19,405 bases of DNA from a virus, in UHGV virus genome UHGV-0147800; one strand, given 5' to 3'. The position numbers and the translations under genes were made by a program. Shown piece after piece: positions 9,041-17,873 of this stretch (positions are counted from its first letter, which is position 1; every line of letters starts with the position of its first letter). Under the pieces are notes generated by a model. That model was given only the letters and a program-made list of their open reading frames with translations, made no database searches and was not told the DNA's origin.

Positions 9041-9664
9041 TTATGCGACCTCGGAAGGAAGTCCAATCATCTTATTCAAATCTTCTACCCGTAAAGCAGG
9101 AAGTGCTGTACTTGCTTTATCTGCTTCTTTTGGTAGCAACTCTTTGCTTTCAGGCCAAACTTCAATAAGTCGCTTAACTGTTGTGACTGAGTTCAAAGCA
9201 GCCCATACATTTGATTCGATATCCTTTTTCTTGGCTTCAAGTTTTTGTTGCAATGCGCAGATTTCATCAAACCTTTTTGTTATTTCGTGTTCTGCGCTAA
9301 ACATGCATTTATCTTTGGTCGGAGTAGGGAGCAATATATCTTCGCCGTTGCCGTCTTTCCCATATGAATACCAGCCAACCCTTCTGCCAGATACAGTCAG
9401 ATAAATTGAAGTTGAACGGGCATCGCATGAGTAAAATGAACATCCCAGCTTTTCAAGTTCTTCGCTTATAGCCATTAACTTGGATGATAACTGATCCACT
9501 TCCTCAGTTTTCTTTTTACCGCCAAACGCAACAACTCTGGCGTCAAGTGCAAGCTGGTTCTTTAACTTTGTTACTTCTTCAAGCTCAGTGAAAACCCCAG
9601 ATTTAATTAAAGCGTTACGAGCGATTTTCTCTTTCATTCTCGTAGTTAAGCGGATTGATGACAT
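9041..9664 (-). CDS. Hypothetical protein (207 aa) in the ral/sieB-equivalent slot just downstream of N
   Basis: ATG at 9662-9664 preceded by GAGAGGAA. Product MSSIRLTTRMKEKIARNALIKSGVF... is soluble with no recognisable motif. The track ORF extends 20 codons further upstream without an RBS. Confidence 0.7.
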   Translation of the reverse strand: MSSIRLTTRMKEKIARNALIKSGVFTELEEVTKLKNQLALDARVVAFGGKKKTEEVDQLSSKLMAISEELEKLGCSFYSCDARSTSIYLTVSGRRVGWYSYGKDGNGEDILLPTPTKDKCMFSAEHEITKRFDEICALQQKLEAKKKDIESNVWAALNSVTTVKRLIEVWPESKELLPKEADKASTALPALRVEDLNKMIGLPSEVA

Positions 9665-9675
9665 ATTAATTCCTC

Positions 9676-9998
9676 TCAAATAAGTGGTTTGCTGCCTAAT
9701 TTCATTTTCTGGCGACCAACACAAGTCATCTTGCTGTCAGTTGTTTGGATTTCCGGTAGCCTGCCGCGTAAAGAGCTACATTTGGAAGACAAGTTGAGCC
9801 TTCATATTTTCTGGTCAACGTTGTCAGTGTTATTACTTCTGCTCTCATTGCTGGTTTGCGCTTGCATTGCAAGACCACTCGAGAGGGGGTTGGTCTGTGT
9901 AGCTTGTCGGAGCTAATCGCCTCCTGACTTTGCAGGTTTGCGCGACGAGCTCTACGACGAGAAGCTGAGGTGCCTTTAAATTCTGTTTTTCTGGACAT
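9676..9998 (-). pseudogene. N: N-like transcription antiterminator, apparently frameshifted
   Basis: ATG at 9996-9998 with SD GGGAGGAA. N-terminus MSRKTEFKGTSASRRRARRANLQSQ carries an arginine-rich motif like lambda N. The in-frame ORF stops at 9726, but the conserved N C-terminus (MTCVGRQKMKLGSKPLI, compare lambda GITCSGRQKIKGKSIPLI) is encoded in the -1 frame ending at TGA 9676-9678, just before the RBS of the next gene. Confidence 0.55.
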
Positions 9999-10096
9999 AG
10001 ATTCCTCCCGAATAAACTTTGGTGATGCAATCTCGAAGCTCCTCCTGAGACGGTTGCTTCGGCATTGCATCCCACAGCTTATGTGGTTGGGTGATC

Positions 10097-10189: not shown

Positions 10190-10250
10190 TAGTCACATAT
10201 TGTGATTTAATGGTCAATCACAAAATGTGTAAAATAAGGGTGTGACACGT
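10190..10250 (-). promoter_or_regulatory. oL/pL operator-promoter region
   Basis: 22-bp palindrome TGTGATTtaatggtcAATCACA at 10201-10222 and motif AATCACAAAATGTGT, both shared with the cI-cro intergenic region. Candidate leftward promoter TTGACC-17-GACTAT (compare lambda pL TTGACA/GATACT). Confidence 0.5.
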
Positions 10251-10470
10251 TATGTGTATGATTTTTTTGTGTAAATAGTTTTCCCCGCGATGGGTTTGCT
10301 TACTTAAGGCGGGGGAAACAGCAGGATGGTGTGCTGAAAAGTTCGAAAAACGAGCGAAGTAGGTGGTGACGAGATGGCGGGATATGGGAGTTGTATTAAG
10401 AATTATAGTAATTTAATCAGAGGCTTGGGCTGGCTGGCAGGTGCTGTCCTGATAGTTATGTGCAGGCAAC

Positions 10471-10497
10471 AAAAAACCCGGCGCGGAAGCCGGGTTA
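10471..10497 (-). terminator. Intrinsic terminator ending the cI-orf144-orf206 transcription unit
   Basis: Minus strand reads CCCGGC-TTCC-GCGCCGGG followed by TTTTTTGTTG, 5 nt after the orf206 stop. Confidence 0.65.
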
Positions 10498-10502
10498 ATG
10501 CG

Positions 10503-11123
10503 TTAATGCTGGGGAGTGATTTTTTTGTTGTCTGTTGGCTGGGTATTTTGTGGCGGCGCTTGCAAAGTGGAAGGCTGTTGCAAAGGTGCGTGGTCTGACT
10601 TTAAAGCTGATACCAGCCCGGGAATCGCAACTATTACAGCGATAATGACACTAAAAATGGCTAATCGTATAGAAATACCCGACTGAACACCACTAATTGC
10701 GGTATTAACCCCTGTTATTTGTCCTTGAATTCCTTCGAATCTCCCATTAATTGCTTTTATATCGCCAGCAGCGCTATCCATCTTTCCATCGATCTTGGAC
10801 GATAGAGAGCTTATGGCTGCATTAAGTGATGCAAATTGGACATTAACGCTTTCACGAGATAGAGCCATGTCAGCCCTAATGGAGGAAGCAATAGACTCCA
10901 TCTCTGCTTTATTAGCAGCTAAGCGAGCATCAAGTTCCTCTCTGCTGATCGTTCCCACTTCTTCCTCCGTTTGTGGCGGTTTTATGTAATTATTTTGCAC
11001 CTTGGTGGGAGAATTATCAAATTCAGCCTCAAAATCAGAACCGCCAACAACCTTCAACCTCCGGCTTTCAGATATGTTGGTGTCTTGCTTTCCATGATTA
11101 TTTAAATTACTGTCGTCACTCAT
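10503..11123 (-). CDS. Hypothetical coiled-coil protein with a single C-proximal transmembrane helix (206 aa)
   Basis: ATG at 11121-11123 overlapping the stop of the upstream gene (ATGA). Polar N-terminus, long heptad-like region, hydrophobic helix LAIFSVIIAVIVAIPGLVSAL, then a Pro/Gln-rich tail. AT-rich compared with cI. Confidence 0.75.
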   Translation of the reverse strand: MSDDSNLNNHGKQDTNISESRRLKVVGGSDFEAEFDNSPTKVQNNYIKPPQTEEEVGTISREELDARLAANKAEMESIASSIRADMALSRESVNVQFASLNAAISSLSSKIDGKMDSAAGDIKAINGRFEGIQGQITGVNTAISGVQSGISIRLAIFSVIIAVIVAIPGLVSALKSDHAPLQQPSTLQAPPQNTQPTDNKKITPQH

Positions 11124-11554
11124 AATAGCTCTACGGTGAAAAATGATTCATTTTTATGAAGTTCATTTTTAGGGTCTTCATTATCTTGCAATATCCCTAT
11201 AACACTATACAGCCCTTTAGCTGGGACCCTAATTTCTTTCAATGTTACTATTACCTGTCCGCCAACCCCTGTTTCAAAATGGCTATCTTTCGTATCGATG
11301 AAAAGTGAAACTGATTCCGAAGAGCCGTCAGGGAATTGAATTTCCTCACCTTTTTTTATAATTAGGTGCGCGGGGATTACCATAATACCCAAATTATATC
11401 TTGAATTTGGTTTCAACCCGATCATACCAACCCTGAAATCAATCGATAGCCGCGCAGGAAATTCATTGCATGTAAAATTAAGCGTCGGTTGGTTGGGTTC
11501 TTCGCTGCTATCAAATGGGGTTATAAAAGATATTCTTTCTAAATTAAGTGCCAT
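11120..11554 (-). CDS. Hypothetical soluble protein (144 aa), first gene after cI
   Basis: ATG at 11552-11554 with strong SD (GCAGGAGAATTT-ATG). An alternative in-frame ATG at 11606-11608 overlaps the cI stop and would give 162 aa. No recognisable motif. Confidence 0.7.
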   Translation of the reverse strand: MALNLERISFITPFDSSEEPNQPTLNFTCNEFPARLSIDFRVGMIGLKPNSRYNLGIMVIPAHLIIKKGEEIQFPDGSSESVSLFIDTKDSHFETGVGGQVIVTLKEIRVPAKGLYSVIGILQDNEDPKNELHKNESFFTVELL

Positions 11555-11604
11555 AAATTCTCCTGCATCGCTGTATGCTCTACGAGCATCTCTGCGACCA
11601 TCCA

Positions 11605-12252
11605 TCATCCAAACGTCTCTTCAGGCCACTGAGCCTTAACTACCTTGCCTATGATGCGGCATGTGTGATCGCAGTCCAGGGTTCTGTATGCCGGATTCAA
11701 TGGAACCAAGTAACTAACCCCTGCATCCTTCTCATACTTCTTGAACGTTGCCTCTGAATCACCATTTGCAGAAGCCACGCAGAAATCCCCAGACTCTACC
11801 GGCTCGGCCGGATCAACGAGTATCAGCATACCCTCAGGAAAACTCGGCCTTACGCCCTGTGGCGCAGTCATAGAATGGCCTTTCACCTCAAGCCAGAAAG
11901 CTTTTTCGCTGGCTTTTGTGGTCGTTGGGACCCATGCCTTTGCATCGCTTGCTGTGTAGCTTCCAACCTCCGAAAACGGCCCGGCCTGCACTGAAGAAAA
12001 TAACGGGTACTCATATTGGCGAAATACAGCGTCTGAATCCTCGCCAAACATTATTTTTGCCGGAGATACGCCGAGTGCCGCCCCAAGAACCAGCGCGTCA
12101 TCCGCGCTAACCTTTCTTGTTCCTAACTCGTAGTTCCCCAGGCGTGAAGGCGCAGCCCAGCCGCAAAGCTTGGCCAATTGAGCCTGGCTAAGTCCTTTAG
12201 CTTCTCTAAGGGACTTGATCCTTTCCCCGATAATTTCATGCATCGTTTTCAT
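11605..12252 (-). CDS. cI: CI-type prophage repressor (HTH plus LexA-like S24 autocleavage domain)
   Basis: 215-aa ORF with N-terminal HTH ([22 protein letters not shown]) and C-terminal S24 peptidase features (Ala-Gly site in VQAGPF, GHSM serine motif, conserved lysine in IGKVVKAQW). Divergent from cro across an operator region. Confidence 0.9.
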
Positions 12253-12360
12253 CCTTTAAATGTAACACGCAACGTGATTGAACTCTGTACACGAATTGAG
12301 GTTGACTGTTAATCACAAATTGTGTGTAATGGGTGTGTGATTAATACTAGGGAGACCGCA
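12253..12360. promoter_or_regulatory. oR operator region with PR (rightward) and presumed PRM (leftward)
   Basis: PR candidate TTGACT (12302-12307), 17-bp spacer, TGTAAT (12325-12330), then SD GGGAGA before cro. Operator-like half-sites AATCACA/TGTGATT and AATCACAAATTGTGTG recur here and in oL. Confidence 0.6.
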
Positions 12361-13050: not shown

Positions 13051-13905
13051 ATGACAAATACAGCAAAAATACTCAACTTCTGCAGAGGTAACTTTGCCAA
13101 ACAGGAGCGTAATGTGGCAGATCTCGATGATGGTTACGCCAGACTATCAAATATGCTGCTTGAGGCTTATTCAGGCGCAGATCTGACCAAGCGACAGTTT
13201 AAAGTGCTGCTTGCCATTCTGCGTAAAACCTATGGGTGGAATAAACCAATGGACAGAATCACCGATTCTCAACTTAGCGAGATTACAAAGTTACCCGTCA
13301 AACGGTGCAATGAAGCCAAGTTAGAACTCGTCAGAATGAATATTATCAAGCAGCAAGGCGGCATGTTTGGACCAAACAAAAACATCTCAGAATGGTGCAT
13401 CCCTCAAAACGAGGGAAAATCCCCTAAAACGAGGGATAAAACATCCCTCAAATTGGGGGATTGCTATCCCTCAAAACAGGGGGACACAAAAGACACTATT
13501 ACAAAAGAAAAAAGAAATAATAAAAACACTATGTCCGAAAGTGTCCGGACGGAGTGTGAAAAATCATCTGACCGTCACGAAGAAACCGACAAGGCATTCG
13601 AGGAAATATTCTGGTGTGCAGGCATGCGGAAAGCCGGGAAAAAAAACGCAGCTTCGGCATTCAGAACACAGTTCAGGGAATGGCGTAAAACTACCAGGGG
13701 TACGGCAAGCGAGTTTGCCACGATGCTGGCAGAAGACATCGCATGCAGGAATGGTAAGCAGTTCGGATTCGACAGGTTGTTACCATCGAGCTACCTGAAC
13801 GGTCAGCGCTGGAACGACGAGAAGCCAGAAACTATTCAACCACAATCCAAACCATCATCCGCAATCACCGTATCGAAAACTGGCTACGTGTTTTTCGACA
13901 GGTGA
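13051..13905 (+). CDS. O: Replication initiator O (lambda O family, iteron-binding)
   Basis: 284-aa ORF with lambda O-like N-terminal domain, and the ori iterons lie inside the gene as in lambda. Confidence 0.9.
   Translation: MTNTAKILNFCRGNFAKQERNVADLDDGYARLSNMLLEAYSGADLTKRQFKVLLAILRKTYGWNKPMDRITDSQLSEITKLPVKRCNEAKLELVRMNIIKQQGGMFGPNKNISEWCIPQNEGKSPKTRDKTSLKLGDCYPSKQGDTKDTITKEKRNNKNTMSESVRTECEKSSDRHEETDKAFEEIFWCAGMRKAGKKNAASAFRTQFREWRKTTRGTASEFATMLAEDIACRNGKQFGFDRLLPSSYLNGQRWNDEKPETIQPQSKPSSAITVSKTGYVFFDR
13399..13530. repeat. Replication origin: four iterons plus AT-rich region
   Basis: Four about 19-bp palindromic iterons (ATCCCTCAAAACGAGGGA, TCCCCTAAAACGAGGGA, ATCCCTCAAATTGGGGGA, ATCCCTCAAAACAGGGGGA) at 13399-13485, then an A/T-rich stretch ACAAAAGAAAAAAGAAATAATAAAAACAC. 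Confidence 0.85.
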
Positions 13906-13908
13906 ACC

Positions 13909-14016
13909 ATGAAATCAAAAATCAAATCGTTACTGGTCGCTGGTTATAACCACGGCTGGTTAAGTATTTCGTTTGTCGATTTCTGGTTTAAAAATCTCAA
14001 TCTGAGGGAATCATGA
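13909..14016 (+). CDS. Small ORF (35 aa) between O and the primase-helicase
   Basis: ATG at 13909 preceded by AGGTGA (AGGTGAACC-ATG). Product MKSKIKSLLVAGYNHGWLSISFVDFWFKNLNLRES. Its stop overlaps the primase-helicase start (ATGA). Could instead be non-coding leader. Confidence 0.3.
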   Translation: MKSKIKSLLVAGYNHGWLSISFVDFWFKNLNLRES

Positions 14017-15893
14017 CTCCAAGTGAACTTAGCTACCTGCTTTGGGCGCAGGTTGACAGGGTGGCTCCACACCTGTTGCCAAACGGCAAGAAAGAGGGGC
14101 ATGAGTGGGTTGCCGGTAACGTCAACGGTGACAAGGGAAACAGCCTTAAGGTCAACCTTAGCGGCAAGAAAAAATGGGCTGATTTCGCTGAGGGAGACGG
14201 CGGTGACATGCTTGATTTATGGATGGCATGTCGTGGAATTAACCTGCATCAGGCTATGCAGGAAGCGAAAGCATTTCTCGGTATCAAGGATGACGATCAT
14301 CATTTCGATGCCAGACGTGAGAAGAAATTCTCCAGACCTGATCGCAAGAAAATAGCCCGCTACGTTACCAGAACAGAATCCCATCTTGAGTACCTGCAAT
14401 CGCGTGGCATATCGCCAGAAGTCGTAAAGCGCTACGAGGTTGTCAGCGGCAAGGTGTGGAATGGAGAACGAGAACTTGATGCACTGGTGCTTCCGTACAA
14501 ACGCGATGGTGAGTTGTTGCAGGTCAAGCGAATCAGCACTGAGCGCCCGGACGGGAAGAAAGTCATTATGGCAGAAGGTGATTGCGAACCTTGCCTGTTC
14601 GGATGGCAGGCTCTGGACGCTGGCGTGAGGGCGGTTGTGCTTTGTGAAGGCGAAATTGATTGTATGAGCTATGCGCAATACGGCATCTCGGCGTTATCCG
14701 TGCCGTTTGGTGGCGGGAAAGGCGCTAAGCAACAGTGGATTGAGTTTGAGTATCACAACCTCGACAGGTTTGAGGAAATATTCATCTCGATGGACGTTGA
14801 TGATGTTGGTCGTGAAGCCGCAAGGGAAATCGCAAGCCGACTCGGTGAACATCGTTGCCGTCTTGTTACTCTGCCGTACAAAGACATCAACGAATGCCTG
14901 ATGAACGGTGTTACCGAGGATGAAATCTGGCAGTACATCGGCACGGCATCCTACTTCGATCCTGAAGAACTCTACAGCGCGCGAGAGTTTTACCAGGACA
15001 CTATCAACGCTTTCTACGGCAAGCAGCAGTATCTGTTTAATCCACCGTGGGAATCTCTGGCAGATAAATTCCAGTTCCGTGAGGCAGAGTTGACGCTGGT
15101 CAATGGTGTGAACGGTCACGGAAAAACGGAGGTTGTCGGGCATATGGCACTTGAGGCAATGCGTCAGGGTGTGAAGACGTGCATCGCGTCACTTGAGCTG
15201 AAGCCTGGTATTCTCCTTAAGCGCCTTACCCGTCAGGCGACGTGCTGCAAGATGCCGCCAGTGCTGGAAATTGACTCTGCATTTAAATTTTATGACGAAA
15301 GACTTTGGGTGTTTGGCCTGACCGGAACGGCGAAAGCCGACAGGCTGATCGAAATATTCGACTACGCTCGCCGCCGATACGGGATCCAGTTATTCATCAT
15401 CGACAGCCTGATGAAATGTGGCATAGGCGACGATGACTATAACGGGCAGAAGGCGTTTGTTGACTCGATTTGCGACTTCAAAAACAAAACAAACTCCCAC
15501 GTCATTCTCGTTACTCACTCGCGAAAAGGAGACAGCGAAGAAAAACCAACCGGGAAAATGGACGTAAAAGGCTCTGGAGCGATAACAGACCTGACAGACA
15601 ACCTTTTCATCATCTGGCGTAACAAGGCTCGCGAGAGAGCGTTACAGAGAGTTCAGAGTGGTGAAAAGATGTCAGAGAAGGACGAACAGCTACTGGCGTC
15701 TCCTGCATCTGTTTTGATGCTTGAAAAACAACGTAACGGCGAAGGTTGGGAAGGTGGTGTCCCGTTGTTCCTTGACGAGCAATCGCACCAGTTCCTGCAA
15801 CTTGAATCAGGATCGCCATATAGCTACATCGCCAATATGCCGAAATCGGAATATGACGAGGCGTGGCGACAGGAAAACGTGACGGAGTATTAA
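14013..15893 (+). CDS. Bifunctional DNA primase/helicase (Toprim domain plus DnaB/RecA-like helicase domain)
   Basis: 626-aa ORF with SD GAGGGAA. N-terminal half has Toprim-like acidic motifs (LCEGEIDCMS, ISMDVDDVGRE). C-terminal half has Walker A (NGVNGHGKTE), Walker B-like (LFIIDSL) and an arginine-finger region. Occupies the position of lambda P. Confidence 0.8.
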   Translation: MTPSELSYLLWAQVDRVAPHLLPNGKKEGHEWVAGNVNGDKGNSLKVNLSGKKKWADFAEGDGGDMLDLWMACRGINLHQAMQEAKAFLGIKDDDHHFDARREKKFSRPDRKKIARYVTRTESHLEYLQSRGISPEVVKRYEVVSGKVWNGERELDALVLPYKRDGELLQVKRISTERPDGKKVIMAEGDCEPCLFGWQALDAGVRAVVLCEGEIDCMSYAQYGISALSVPFGGGKGAKQQWIEFEYHNLDRFEEIFISMDVDDVGREAAREIASRLGEHRCRLVTLPYKDINECLMNGVTEDEIWQYIGTASYFDPEELYSAREFYQDTINAFYGKQQYLFNPPWESLADKFQFREAELTLVNGVNGHGKTEVVGHMALEAMRQGVKTCIASLELKPGILLKRLTRQATCCKMPPVLEIDSAFKFYDERLWVFGLTGTAKADRLIEIFDYARRRYGIQLFIIDSLMKCGIGDDDYNGQKAFVDSICDFKNKTNSHVILVTHSRKGDSEEKPTGKMDVKGSGAITDLTDNLFIIWRNKARERALQRVQSGEKMSEKDEQLLASPASVLMLEKQRNGEGWEGGVPLFLDEQSHQFLQLESGSPYSYIANMPKSEYDEAWRQENVTEY

Positions 15894-16991: not shown

Positions 16992-17158
16992 TTGACCAAA
17001 ATCGAAGTTACGAACAAGAAAGCGTCGAGCGGGCTTTAACGTGCGCTAATTGCGGTCAGAAGCTGCATGTGCTGGAAGTTCACGTGTGTGAGCACTGCTG
17101 TGCAGAACTGATGAGCGATCCGAATAGCTCAATGTACGAGGAAGAAGACGATGAATGA
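16988..17158 (+). CDS. ninF: NinF
   Basis: Probable GTG start at 16988 giving (M)[55 protein letters not shown], which matches recalled lambda NinF. The track ORF starts at an upstream ATG (16946) inside ninE. Confidence 0.7.
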
Positions 17159-17873
17159 GTTAATAAATGGCAATGCCATCAAAATGACAAGCATTGAAAT
17201 CGCTGAGTTGGTGGGAAGTCGTCCAGATAACGTAAAAATATCAATAGAGCGCCTGGCTAAATCTGGAGTTATTCAACTTCCTGCATTGCAGGTTTTCGAA
17301 AGAATCAATAACTTAGGACTGCGCCGTAGTGTCGAGGCTTACGTCTTCGAAGGCGAACAAGGTAAGCGCGACAGCATTATTGTCGTCGCTCAGTTGTCGC
17401 CGGAATTCACCGCTCGTCTTGTTGACCGTTGGCGAGAGCTTGAAGACGCTGCGGTTAATATCCCCAAAACGCTACCAGAAGCGTTGCGCCTTGCTGCTGA
17501 TCTTGCTGAGCAGAAAATGCAACTGGAAAACCAGCTCGCAATTGCCGCACCTAAAGTTGAGTTTGCCGATCGCGTTGGCGAGGCCAGCGGAATTTTGATT
17601 GGAAACTTTGCAAAGGTTGTTGGAATTGGTCCAAACAAACTGTTTGCGTGGATGCGCGATCACAAAATCCTTATTGCTTCAGGTTCCCGGCGCAATGTGC
17701 CAATGCAGGAATATATGGATCGCGGCTATTTCACAGTGAAAGAAACAGCGGTCAACACAAATCACGGAATACAGATATCGTTCACCACAAAAATCACCGG
17801 GCGTGGTCAACAGTGGCTGACCAGAAAGCTGCTCGATAACGGAATGCTGAAAGTAACAGGGGAGGCTGCTTAA
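17151..17873 (+). CDS. Phage antirepressor-like protein (Rha/Ant N-terminal region with KilA-C-like C-terminus); possible Roi analogue
   Basis: 240-aa ORF overlapping the ninF stop. The N-terminal [35 protein letters not shown] resembles phage Rha/antirepressor DNA-binding regions. Position matches roi of HK022-type nin regions. Family call is from memory. Confidence 0.6.
   Translation: MNELINGNAIKMTSIEIAELVGSRPDNVKISIERLAKSGVIQLPALQVFERINNLGLRRSVEAYVFEGEQGKRDSIIVVAQLSPEFTARLVDRWRELEDAAVNIPKTLPEALRLAADLAEQKMQLENQLAIAAPKVEFADRVGEASGILIGNFAKVVGIGPNKLFAWMRDHKILIASGSRRNVPMQEYMDRGYFTVKETAVNTNHGIQISFTTKITGRGQQWLTRKLLDNGMLKVTGEAA

Follow-up and report, generated by a model that had tools for sequence, protein, structure and literature searches.

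Immediately downstream of the prophage repressor gene cI in UHGV-0147800, a 19,405-nt viral genome (the window, to whose full length all coordinates refer), lie two genes, open reading frame A (ORF-A) and ORF-B, that together form a unit of repressor-linked prophage cargo. The encoded proteins have a previously uncharacterized architecture, and the unit is a good candidate exclusion system. Our preferred reading, held tentatively and at slightly less than an even chance, is a two-component phage exclusion module at the inner membrane, in which a cartridge made of the partner protein and the N-terminus of ORF-B acts as sensor or regulator. This reading is argued from position and architecture. 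Two observations are new here: the repressor-linked arrangement of a partner gene, ORF-B, and a terminator, and the joint swapping of the partner with the ORF-B N-terminus. Coordinates of all features are collected in Table 1.

ORF-A and ORF-B are real genes, because they match PHROG families, have homologs in many genera, and show saturated synonymous divergence (dS) with low nonsynonymous divergence (dN). Full-length hidden Markov model matches were obtained to phrog_5893 for ORF-A (E = 3.3e-50) and to phrog_5820 for ORF-B (E = 1e-76). Both ORF-A and the core of ORF-B are under purifying selection, with dS saturated and dN at 0.12-0.30 in most pairs of divergent ORF-A copies and at 0.14-0.27 in most pairs of divergent loci for the ORF-B core. 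The N-terminus and tail of ORF-B evolve faster than this core. ORF-A begins at the ATG at position 11554, with AGGAG 6 nt upstream, and all eight aligned homologs begin at that methionine. The original prediction had also entertained a longer ORF-A of 162 aa starting at position 11608. We rejected this version because homologs start at the methionine of the 144-aa protein and the extra 54 nt are junction sequence (described below), which is non-coding in 933W and other prophages.

The remaining anatomy was confirmed where it had originally been placed: cI, both genes, the transmembrane (TM) helix and Pro/Gln-rich tail of ORF-B, the ATGA at 11123-11120 through which the ORF-B start overlaps the ORF-A stop, and the intrinsic terminator. 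The GC-rich stem of the terminator (AACCCGGC/GCCGGGTT, 10496-10475, with TTTTTTG after it) begins 6 nt past ORF-B, and its RNA fold of -20.3 kcal/mol (z = -3.3) was equaled in stability by none of 200 shuffled sequences. On the minus strand from the cI start to this hairpin, we found neither a second terminator-like site nor a convincing promoter-like site. One promoter-like site in ORF-B (11020-10992) was dismissed, given 4.2 such sites expected by chance. The earlier proposal of cotranscription with cI is consistent with these findings: in the lysogen, a transcript from the repressor promoter (PRM) would run through cI, ORF-A, and ORF-B to the terminator. The cassette is also AT-richer than cI, as had been noted, with GC fractions of 0.377 for ORF-A and 0.433 for ORF-B versus 0.519 for cI (0.472 for the prophage part of the window).

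Operator-like TCACAnnnnTGTG sites occur at the left operator (OL, ~10190-10235) and at the right operator (OR, 12311). Because the OL sites and N lie beyond the terminator and OR lies near cI, the cassette fills the interval between cI and the leftward promoter PL. The claim that this is the slot of lambda rexA and rexB is borne out by phages HK542 and HK244, whose immunity regions are 98.6% identical to window positions 10460-11632 and include a lambda-type cI, OR, and OL. Their GenBank records give HK542c105 (144 aa) and HK542c104 (206 aa) as hypothetical and then 'Timm', where the lambda interval consists of rexA, rexB, and Timm. HK542c105/HK542c104 and their HK244 equivalents (EF120458/EF120457; PHROG 5893 and 5820) are thus the same genes (98.6% DNA and 99% protein identity) and differ only in context, with a lambda-type cI instead of the type found in mEpX1 and VT1-Sakai.

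By megablast, the mobile unit is 98.6-99.7% identical to HK542, HK244, and Escherichia coli prophages with other repressors. The ORF-A/ORF-B coding pair is present in 51 of 5,426 complete E. coli genomes, as one copy each, always chromosomal and annotated "hypothetical". At least 80% of the pair is retained in 49 of these genomes, and at least three copies appear damaged: IS1 interrupts one, the ORF is split in another, and a third is partial. The variants of the cassette in E. coli (H73, NZ_CP031134.1; H74, NZ_CP148426.1; H75-H79) comprise an IS1-interrupted cassette, an apparent split into three ORFs, and an ORF-B lineage that is 18 bp shorter (200 aa). These natural variants are potential loss-of-function or variant controls.

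The E. coli cassettes follow at least four repressors: the window type, the lambda type, WP_021572762, and WP_000250473. In the company of WP_000250473, and in many loci from IMG/VR, a DUF3024 gene stands between the repressor and the cassette. This 113-aa gene (L0084 in 933W) is a second type of lysogen-operon gene often found in that place, ahead of the stk cassette in some loci and of the A/B pair in others (L007, 3623-3964; L062, which is 933W, 2540-2881; L020-L027 and others), and it is not present in the window. The window's own combination of cI and cassette occurs in none of the complete E. coli genomes and in three IMG/VR contigs.

The window cI matches Peptidase_S24 (E = 3.9e-26) and HTH_31/HTH_3 in Pfam and is 95% identical to the repressors of mEpX1 and VT1-Sakai. 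The slot is variable. Among phages with a window-type repressor, mEpX1 carries two unrelated genes there, a pair of 159 aa and 310 aa (L069, 644-2052), and VT1-Sakai carries only H0053, a 183-aa gene followed by a terminator of its own (L070, 1240-1791). 933W has different cargo again. The mEpX1 pair and H0053 are further uncharacterized candidate cargo.

A 38-nt junction at the 3' end of cI links several of these loci. Stx phages of the 933W type have it with 100% identity, flanked by L0084 (DUF3024) on one side and L0083-stk-L0081 on the other, and the window and 933W sequences diverge immediately 3' of it. Upstream of the cassette, the junction also follows lambda cI, another repressor, or DUF3024; behind the latter two it is a non-coding relic. 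The copies at L001, L007, L008, L009, and L062 are remnants of the 3' end of a lambda-like cI. The junction probably serves as a recombination 'boundary sequence' for cargo exchange. Because it is shared in this manner, and because the cassette replaces rexAB in HK542 and HK244, we read rexAB and the stk cassette as alternatives to the A/B pair at a single exchange site. The A/B unit is self-terminated and horizontally exchanged. The cI-to-PL interval has been described as a hotspot and defense locus in earlier work (Degnan et al. 2007 via PMC8585504; HigBAC preprint).

Clustering of the ORF-B family at 90% identity gives 67 clusters, which are confined to Enterobacterales (Escherichia, Klebsiella, Enterobacter, Citrobacter, Salmonella, Cedecea, Leclercia, Pantoea, Pectobacterium, Yersinia, Xenorhabdus, and Morganella) and whose members are unnamed, hypothetical, or automatically named. 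Genomic contexts were assembled from look-ups in Cedecea, Yersinia, Pectobacterium, Salmonella, Leclercia, Enterobacter, Citrobacter, and Phytobacter, from two species-representative genomes, and from 42 IMG/VR contigs. A scan of species-representative genomes yielded only two loci because such genomes rarely carry the prophage. In every readable locus, including 40 complete IMG/VR loci, ORF-B is the second of two genes and is preceded by a small gene on the same strand, which usually overlaps it or lies no more than 20 nt away. Two loci that appeared to lack a partner (L050 and L052) are not real exceptions, as the partner gene was missed in ORF calling.

In almost all readable loci, a prophage repressor gene immediately precedes the pair on the same strand, and the pair diverges from a cro-like gene. 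The repressors themselves vary between a long S24 type and a short helix-turn-helix type. Furthermore, a hairpin with a T-run starts within 20 nt of the ORF-B stop codon in 14 of 18 representative lineages. In Yersinia enterocolitica (L005, 5695-6699), which is the one clear exception, a 97-aa partner and ORF-B are situated away from any repressor, beside dinI and Mu-like baseplate and tail-fiber genes, and the same pair follows a repressor in locus L006. Because the L005 copy stands apart from a repressor, the unit can move as an independent moron.

BLAST clustering of the proteins encoded ahead of ORF-B resolved five unrelated families. One is the ORF-A type (143-144 aa), two have members of 92-99 aa, and the remaining two are a 120-aa protein with a CxxC...CxxC motif and a 149-aa protein from Salmonella. 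When five alternative partner proteins were scanned against Pfam and PHROGs, no Pfam domain was found and only PHROGs of unknown function were matched. Likewise, direct comparison of ORF-A with the 149-aa Salmonella partner revealed no relationship. Every partner family has one or more ORF-B N-terminus classes of its own. Whenever the partner is of the ORF-A type, as it also is in Citrobacter and Phytobacter, the ORF-B after it starts with MSDx...L(K/R)V(V/I)xGSxF(E/D)A, and the 4-nt overlap between the two genes is found in all such loci.

Sequence identities follow the same division. Between the window and Enterobacter, which has the 120-aa partner, the partner and the ORF-B N-terminus are each 17% identical and the ORF-B core is 78% identical. 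Between the window and Citrobacter, which has an ORF-A-type partner, the corresponding values are 65%, 37%, and 36%. Because the identities of the partner and N-terminus are discordant with that of the core, we place a recombination joint inside ORF-B near residue 60. The partner plus N-terminal segment, on one side, and the coiled coil, TM helix, and tail, on the other, can accordingly be viewed as two evolutionary modules. This pattern suggests that the partner docks on the ORF-B N-terminus, and the co-variation of these two elements supports a functional coupling of the two proteins.

The predicted architecture of ORF-B consists of four segments (Table 1). A coiled coil, whose length differs among homologs by indels of seven residues, has a Gly-rich second half with the heptads IDGKMDS/AAGDIKA/INGRFEG/IQGQITG/VNTAISG/VQSGIS (8 Gly in 43 residues). 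The structural model has a long helix at residues 61-142, with a predicted local distance difference test (pLDDT) score of up to 91, and a second helix at residues 150-174. Because 150 residues precede the sole TM helix and a signal peptide is absent, ORF-B is expected to be a tail-anchored inner-membrane protein with its N-terminus in the cytoplasm and its C-terminus outside, and the charges flanking the TM helix are weakly consistent with this topology. ORF-B is probably oligomeric, with a stalk and a bundle of TM helices, because the heptad coil of about 90 residues continues directly into the TM helix. The tail is 30-45 residues long across the family. Most lineages carry the motif QP(I/V)IIQVP in the tail; the E. 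coli variant in the window has QPSTLQAPP, and the motif is missing in Citrobacter and Phytobacter.

ORF-A is modeled as a seven-stranded immunoglobulin (Ig)-like beta-sandwich that can be superposed on Ig/FN3-type domains. Its profile side matches are to He_PIG, PKD, Big, and InlK Ig-repeat proteins, in agreement with an Ig-like fold. No signal peptide was found, and ORF-A is therefore placed in the cytoplasm, where it is most plausibly an Ig-like protein-binding module. An exhaustive profile search of 1.84 billion representatives recovered only 23 proteins, mostly stand-alone and 140-153 aa in length. Among solved-structure profiles, the only match to ORF-A was TRPM7, which was judged spurious.

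Neither protein matched Pfam or NCBIfam above cut-offs, and no toxin or antitoxin domain was found in either with these databases. SieB, holins, XhlA, and spanins were absent from the Pfam matches even at E <= 1. In PADLOC-DB v2.0.0 (2023), ORF-A had no matches and ORF-B matched only LmuB (E = 0.016, 11.9 bits). Comparison of ORF-B with solved-structure profiles gave borderline coiled-coil and SmhB matches, which we rejected as evidence of family membership, and a weak similarity to trimeric viral coiled coils was far below threshold.

We found no paper assigning a function to the pair in the searchable literature. Six RefSeq accessions of the pair are not mentioned in searchable main texts or in the DefensePredictor supplements, a comparison that did not extend to Degnan 2007 or Brenes & Laub 2025, and HK542 features in one defense paper merely as a test phage. 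The coiled-coil membrane system of Vassallo 2022 is different and includes a DUF4041-containing protein. The Gifsy systems GiPD474 (a single gene) and remAIN (a three-gene cluster) have architectures unlike the A/B pair. The original prediction had termed the cassette undescribed. This does not hold for its sequence, which is in GenBank (HK542/HK244), in PHROGs, and in 51 E. coli genomes, but it stands for its function, as the proteins are always annotated 'hypothetical protein'.

Of the known systems, the closest in organization is lambda RexA/RexB. Both pairs occupy the same slot between cI and Timm/PL in the same orientation, are closed by a terminator, are AT-richer than cI, and comprise a soluble protein gene followed by a membrane protein gene that would be read from the repressor promoter in the case of A/B. 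RexAB excludes T4 rII and other phages, and membrane potential is lost in the process. The proteins themselves differ. In the literature, RexA (279 aa) is described as DNA-binding and RexB (144 aa) as a multi-pass membrane protein, whereas ORF-A is predicted to be an Ig-like sandwich of 144 aa and ORF-B a tail-anchored coiled coil of 206 aa that spans the membrane once. Profile comparison by hhalign gave a probability of 0.11% (E = 0.51) for ORF-A versus RexA and of 0.22% for ORF-B, with its single TM helix, versus RexB, and neither protein can be assigned to the corresponding Rex family. No internal promoter resembling pLit was detected in the A/B cassette.

The L0083-stk-L0081 cargo of 933W is positionally allelic to A/B, with the same 38-nt junction before it and a terminator before PL after it. 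Stk, for which exclusion of HK97 has been reported, is a Ser/Thr kinase of the eukaryotic-like type. Its companion L0083 is unrelated to ORF-A (profile probability 0.06%), and the A/B pair has no enzymatic domain. BstA and HigBAC resemble A/B as defense genes within the repressor transcription unit of lambdoid and P22-like prophages. BstA is a single protein that localizes to sites of phage DNA replication, and HigBAC is a toxin-antitoxin-chaperone system (PMC8585504; HigBAC preprint). Neither is membrane-anchored or homologous to the A/B pair (PADLOC search negative). In actinobacteriophages, Sbash gp30/31 and Butters gp30/31 are reported as lysogen-expressed pairs of a cytoplasmic and a membrane protein directed against heterotypic phages; with other hosts and other protein families, they resemble the A/B pair in concept, and homology is not expected.

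A last point of comparison is the alpha-pore-forming toxins (alpha-PFTs) ClyA, MakA, and SmhB. The Gly-rich amphipathic stretch of ORF-B beside a hydrophobic helix is reminiscent of their membrane-inserting head, and ORF-B scored against MakE (E = 0.006), MakA (E = 0.18), and SmhB (E = 0.014 over 58 residues). The MakE score of 15.7 bits compares with a cut-off of 360, and size and overall architecture are different, so ORF-B is not a member of this family. We take the similarity as a weak hint of membrane activity.

The preferred exclusion reading draws on the company that the cassette keeps, because the characterized occupants of the slot, RexAB, BstA, HigBAC, and Stk, are defensive. It is further supported by the replacement of rexAB-Timm in HK542 and HK244, the linkage to repressors, the modular swapping, and purifying selection. 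Under this reading, ORF-B would oligomerize through its coiled-coil stalk and TM bundle, leaving a short Pro/Gln-rich tail in the periplasm. ORF-A would bind the disordered first ~60 residues of ORF-B, and the two together would form a swappable specificity or regulatory module. This module might sense, or be released by, an infecting phage, and the coiled-coil/TM module would then act on the membrane, most likely by permeabilizing it, with an abortive outcome. Within the exclusion reading, this abortive version is the more likely one because the bulk of ORF-B is predicted to be cytoplasmic and its Gly-rich heptads abut the TM helix. The original interpretation of the pair as a sensor and membrane effector in abortive infection is likewise a hypothesis.

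An extension of this reading to a previously unrecognized, Enterobacterales-wide class of repressor-linked immune modules, in which a conserved tail-anchored coiled-coil membrane effector would be combined with at least five interchangeable sensor cartridges (each a partner and its docking peptide) and could be retargeted to other phage cues, is in our view less likely than not.

Several points weigh against the exclusion reading. Slot position is a prior only, and not every gene there is defensive; indeed, one preprint reports that RexA also modulates the lysis-lysogeny switch of lambda (bioRxiv 10.1101/2021.04.19.439022). No homology to known defense proteins was found for ORF-A or ORF-B in PADLOC, Pfam, or NCBIfam, and the most relevant E. 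coli prophage-defense screen (Brenes & Laub 2025) falls outside our literature comparison. Expression, the A/B interaction, toxicity, and phage protection are all putative. The structural model of ORF-A is of only moderate confidence (pLDDT 67), three of five models were poor, and the fold is generic. The co-inheritance from which docking was deduced can also be explained by the tight linkage of adjacent DNA. Finally, the alpha-PFT similarities are far below thresholds and may reflect coiled-coil composition.

Among the alternatives, the strongest is that the pair serves the lysogen without acting against phages, by tuning the switch of its own prophage, the induction of that prophage, or the timing of lysis, or by altering host envelope or stress physiology. 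The tail-anchored coiled-coil proteins ElaB and YqjD offer a model for an envelope or stress role. The tight linkage to repressor genes across very different repressor types would fit such a function, as would the bias that RexA is reported to exert on the lambda switch and the finding that PADLOC detected no defense domain in the pair. However, the same cassette is found behind at least four unrelated repressors and with different replication and N modules, which rules out dependence on a specific switch partner. One copy (L005) lies away from any repressor, and the diversification of the partner and N-terminus resembles an arms-race interface more than a housekeeping function. We therefore consider a non-defensive lysogen function unlikely.

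Also unlikely, and ranked after it, is a non-abortive form of superinfection exclusion in which ORF-B would block entry of incoming DNA at the inner membrane, for instance by disturbing the injection channel or a host co-factor of it, and the cell would survive. HK97 gp15, P22 SieA, and T4 Imm are superinfection exclusion proteins that block entry in this way. Known entry blockers have most of their mass exposed to the periplasm or membrane, whereas about 150 of the 206 ORF-B residues are predicted to be cytoplasmic. An entry block would suit a predicted single-pass inner-membrane protein of the lysogen operon, and the pair also occurs as a moron beside tail genes in Yersinia (L005). The short, conserved tail motif QP(I/V)IIQVP, carried by most lineages, points to a specific contact in the periplasm, yet this motif is lost in the E. 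coli variant of the window, in Citrobacter, and in Phytobacter. Moreover, the variable cytoplasmic partner would have no obvious role, and no match to a Sie or Imm family was found in Pfam.

It is improbable that the unit is a toxin-antitoxin-like addiction pair that stabilizes the prophage through an ORF-B membrane toxin neutralized by the coupled ORF-A: although a small upstream gene overlaps a larger downstream gene by 4 nt, and the partner and the ORF-B region that it would bind co-vary like mix-and-match antitoxins and toxins, no toxin or antitoxin family match or promoter-like site of its own was found, ORF-A lacks a DNA-binding domain for autoregulation, an integrated prophage needs no plasmid-style addiction, and the idea overlaps the abortive-infection model without excluding it.

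Table 1. Coordinates of the A/B unit, its protein segments, and flanking features in the window.
Feature	Coordinates	Strand	Basis
Mobile unit, full extent (1.17 kb)	10460..11632	-	megablast, query 61-1233 of window 10400-12350
cI, prophage repressor, 215 aa, helix-turn-helix plus S24 autopeptidase; first gene of the lysogenic operon	11605..12252	-	
38-nt junction TGAAGAGACGTTTGGATGATGGATGGTCGCAGAGATGC (coding strand): cI 3' end (..PEETFG*) plus 19 nt	11586..11623	-	
Spacer between cI and ORF-A, 50 nt		-	
ORF-A, 144 aa, soluble partner gene	11120..11554	-	phrog_5893 match
ORF-B, 206 aa, conserved core gene of the unit	10503..11123	-	phrog_5820 match
ORF-B residues 1-60: hypervariable, disordered N-terminus (MSDD..RRLKVVGGSDFEAEFDNS..), proposed ORF-A docking site	10944..11123	-	
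ORF-B residues 61-153: heptad coiled coil, conserved, with its register continued by the TM helix	10665..10943	-	alignment, model
ORF-B residues 154-174: single TM helix LAIFSVIIAVIVAIPGLVSAL with small-residue stripe, conserved in the family	10602..10664	-	sequence
ORF-B residues 175-206: C-terminal tail, rich in Pro and Gln, predicted to lie in the periplasm	10506..10601	-	
Intrinsic terminator closing the unit, counterpart of lambda Timm	10467..10496	-	annotated 'Timm' in HK542
OL operator-like sites AGTCACATATTGTGA and AATCACAAAATGTGT, marking PL/OL past the terminator	10190..10235		match to the OR site at 12311
N	10070..9726	-	

The remainder of the window agrees with the original description of a lambdoid prophage next to torS. 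An integrase gene and torS lie at its far left, and on the other side of cI are cro, cII, O, a primase-helicase gene, NinB, an Ant-like gene, YbcO, RusA, and Q. The integrase, torS, and the lambdoid gene order therefore identify a lambdoid prophage adjoining torS. Directly downstream of N in the early-left operon is a gene for a 227-aa Nmad5 protein (9041-9724, minus strand; PF18757, E = 6e-71; phrog_1965), and HK542 likewise has an Nmad5 gene after N, annotated as hypothetical. The replication module consists of O (13051-13905) and a 626-aa Toprim/DnaB-like primase-helicase fusion (14013-15893, plus strand), which replaces the P-type loader of lambda. A 240-aa protein with a KilAC/ANT antirepressor domain (17151-17873, plus strand) is encoded in the nin region between NinB and YbcO-RusA-Q. 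A 74-aa plus-strand ORF (10374-10598) that runs across the terminator and the 3' end of ORF-B is without support and probably spurious.

The A/B unit is thus a recurrent occupant of the slot behind the prophage repressor, carried by about 1% of complete E. coli genomes and found in prophages from at least a dozen enterobacterial genera, and it has no recognizable domain. The hypothesis of exclusion is directly testable, because HK542 is a cultivable lambda-immunity phage in which the same cassette replaces rexAB. If the unit is a defense system, it would represent a new protein architecture in which a tail-anchored coiled coil is combined with an Ig-like partner, and the recombination joint in ORF-B would be a natural experiment that separates the sensing part from the acting part. 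If it is not, the unit would be a counter-example to the assumed defensive nature of the cargo in this slot.

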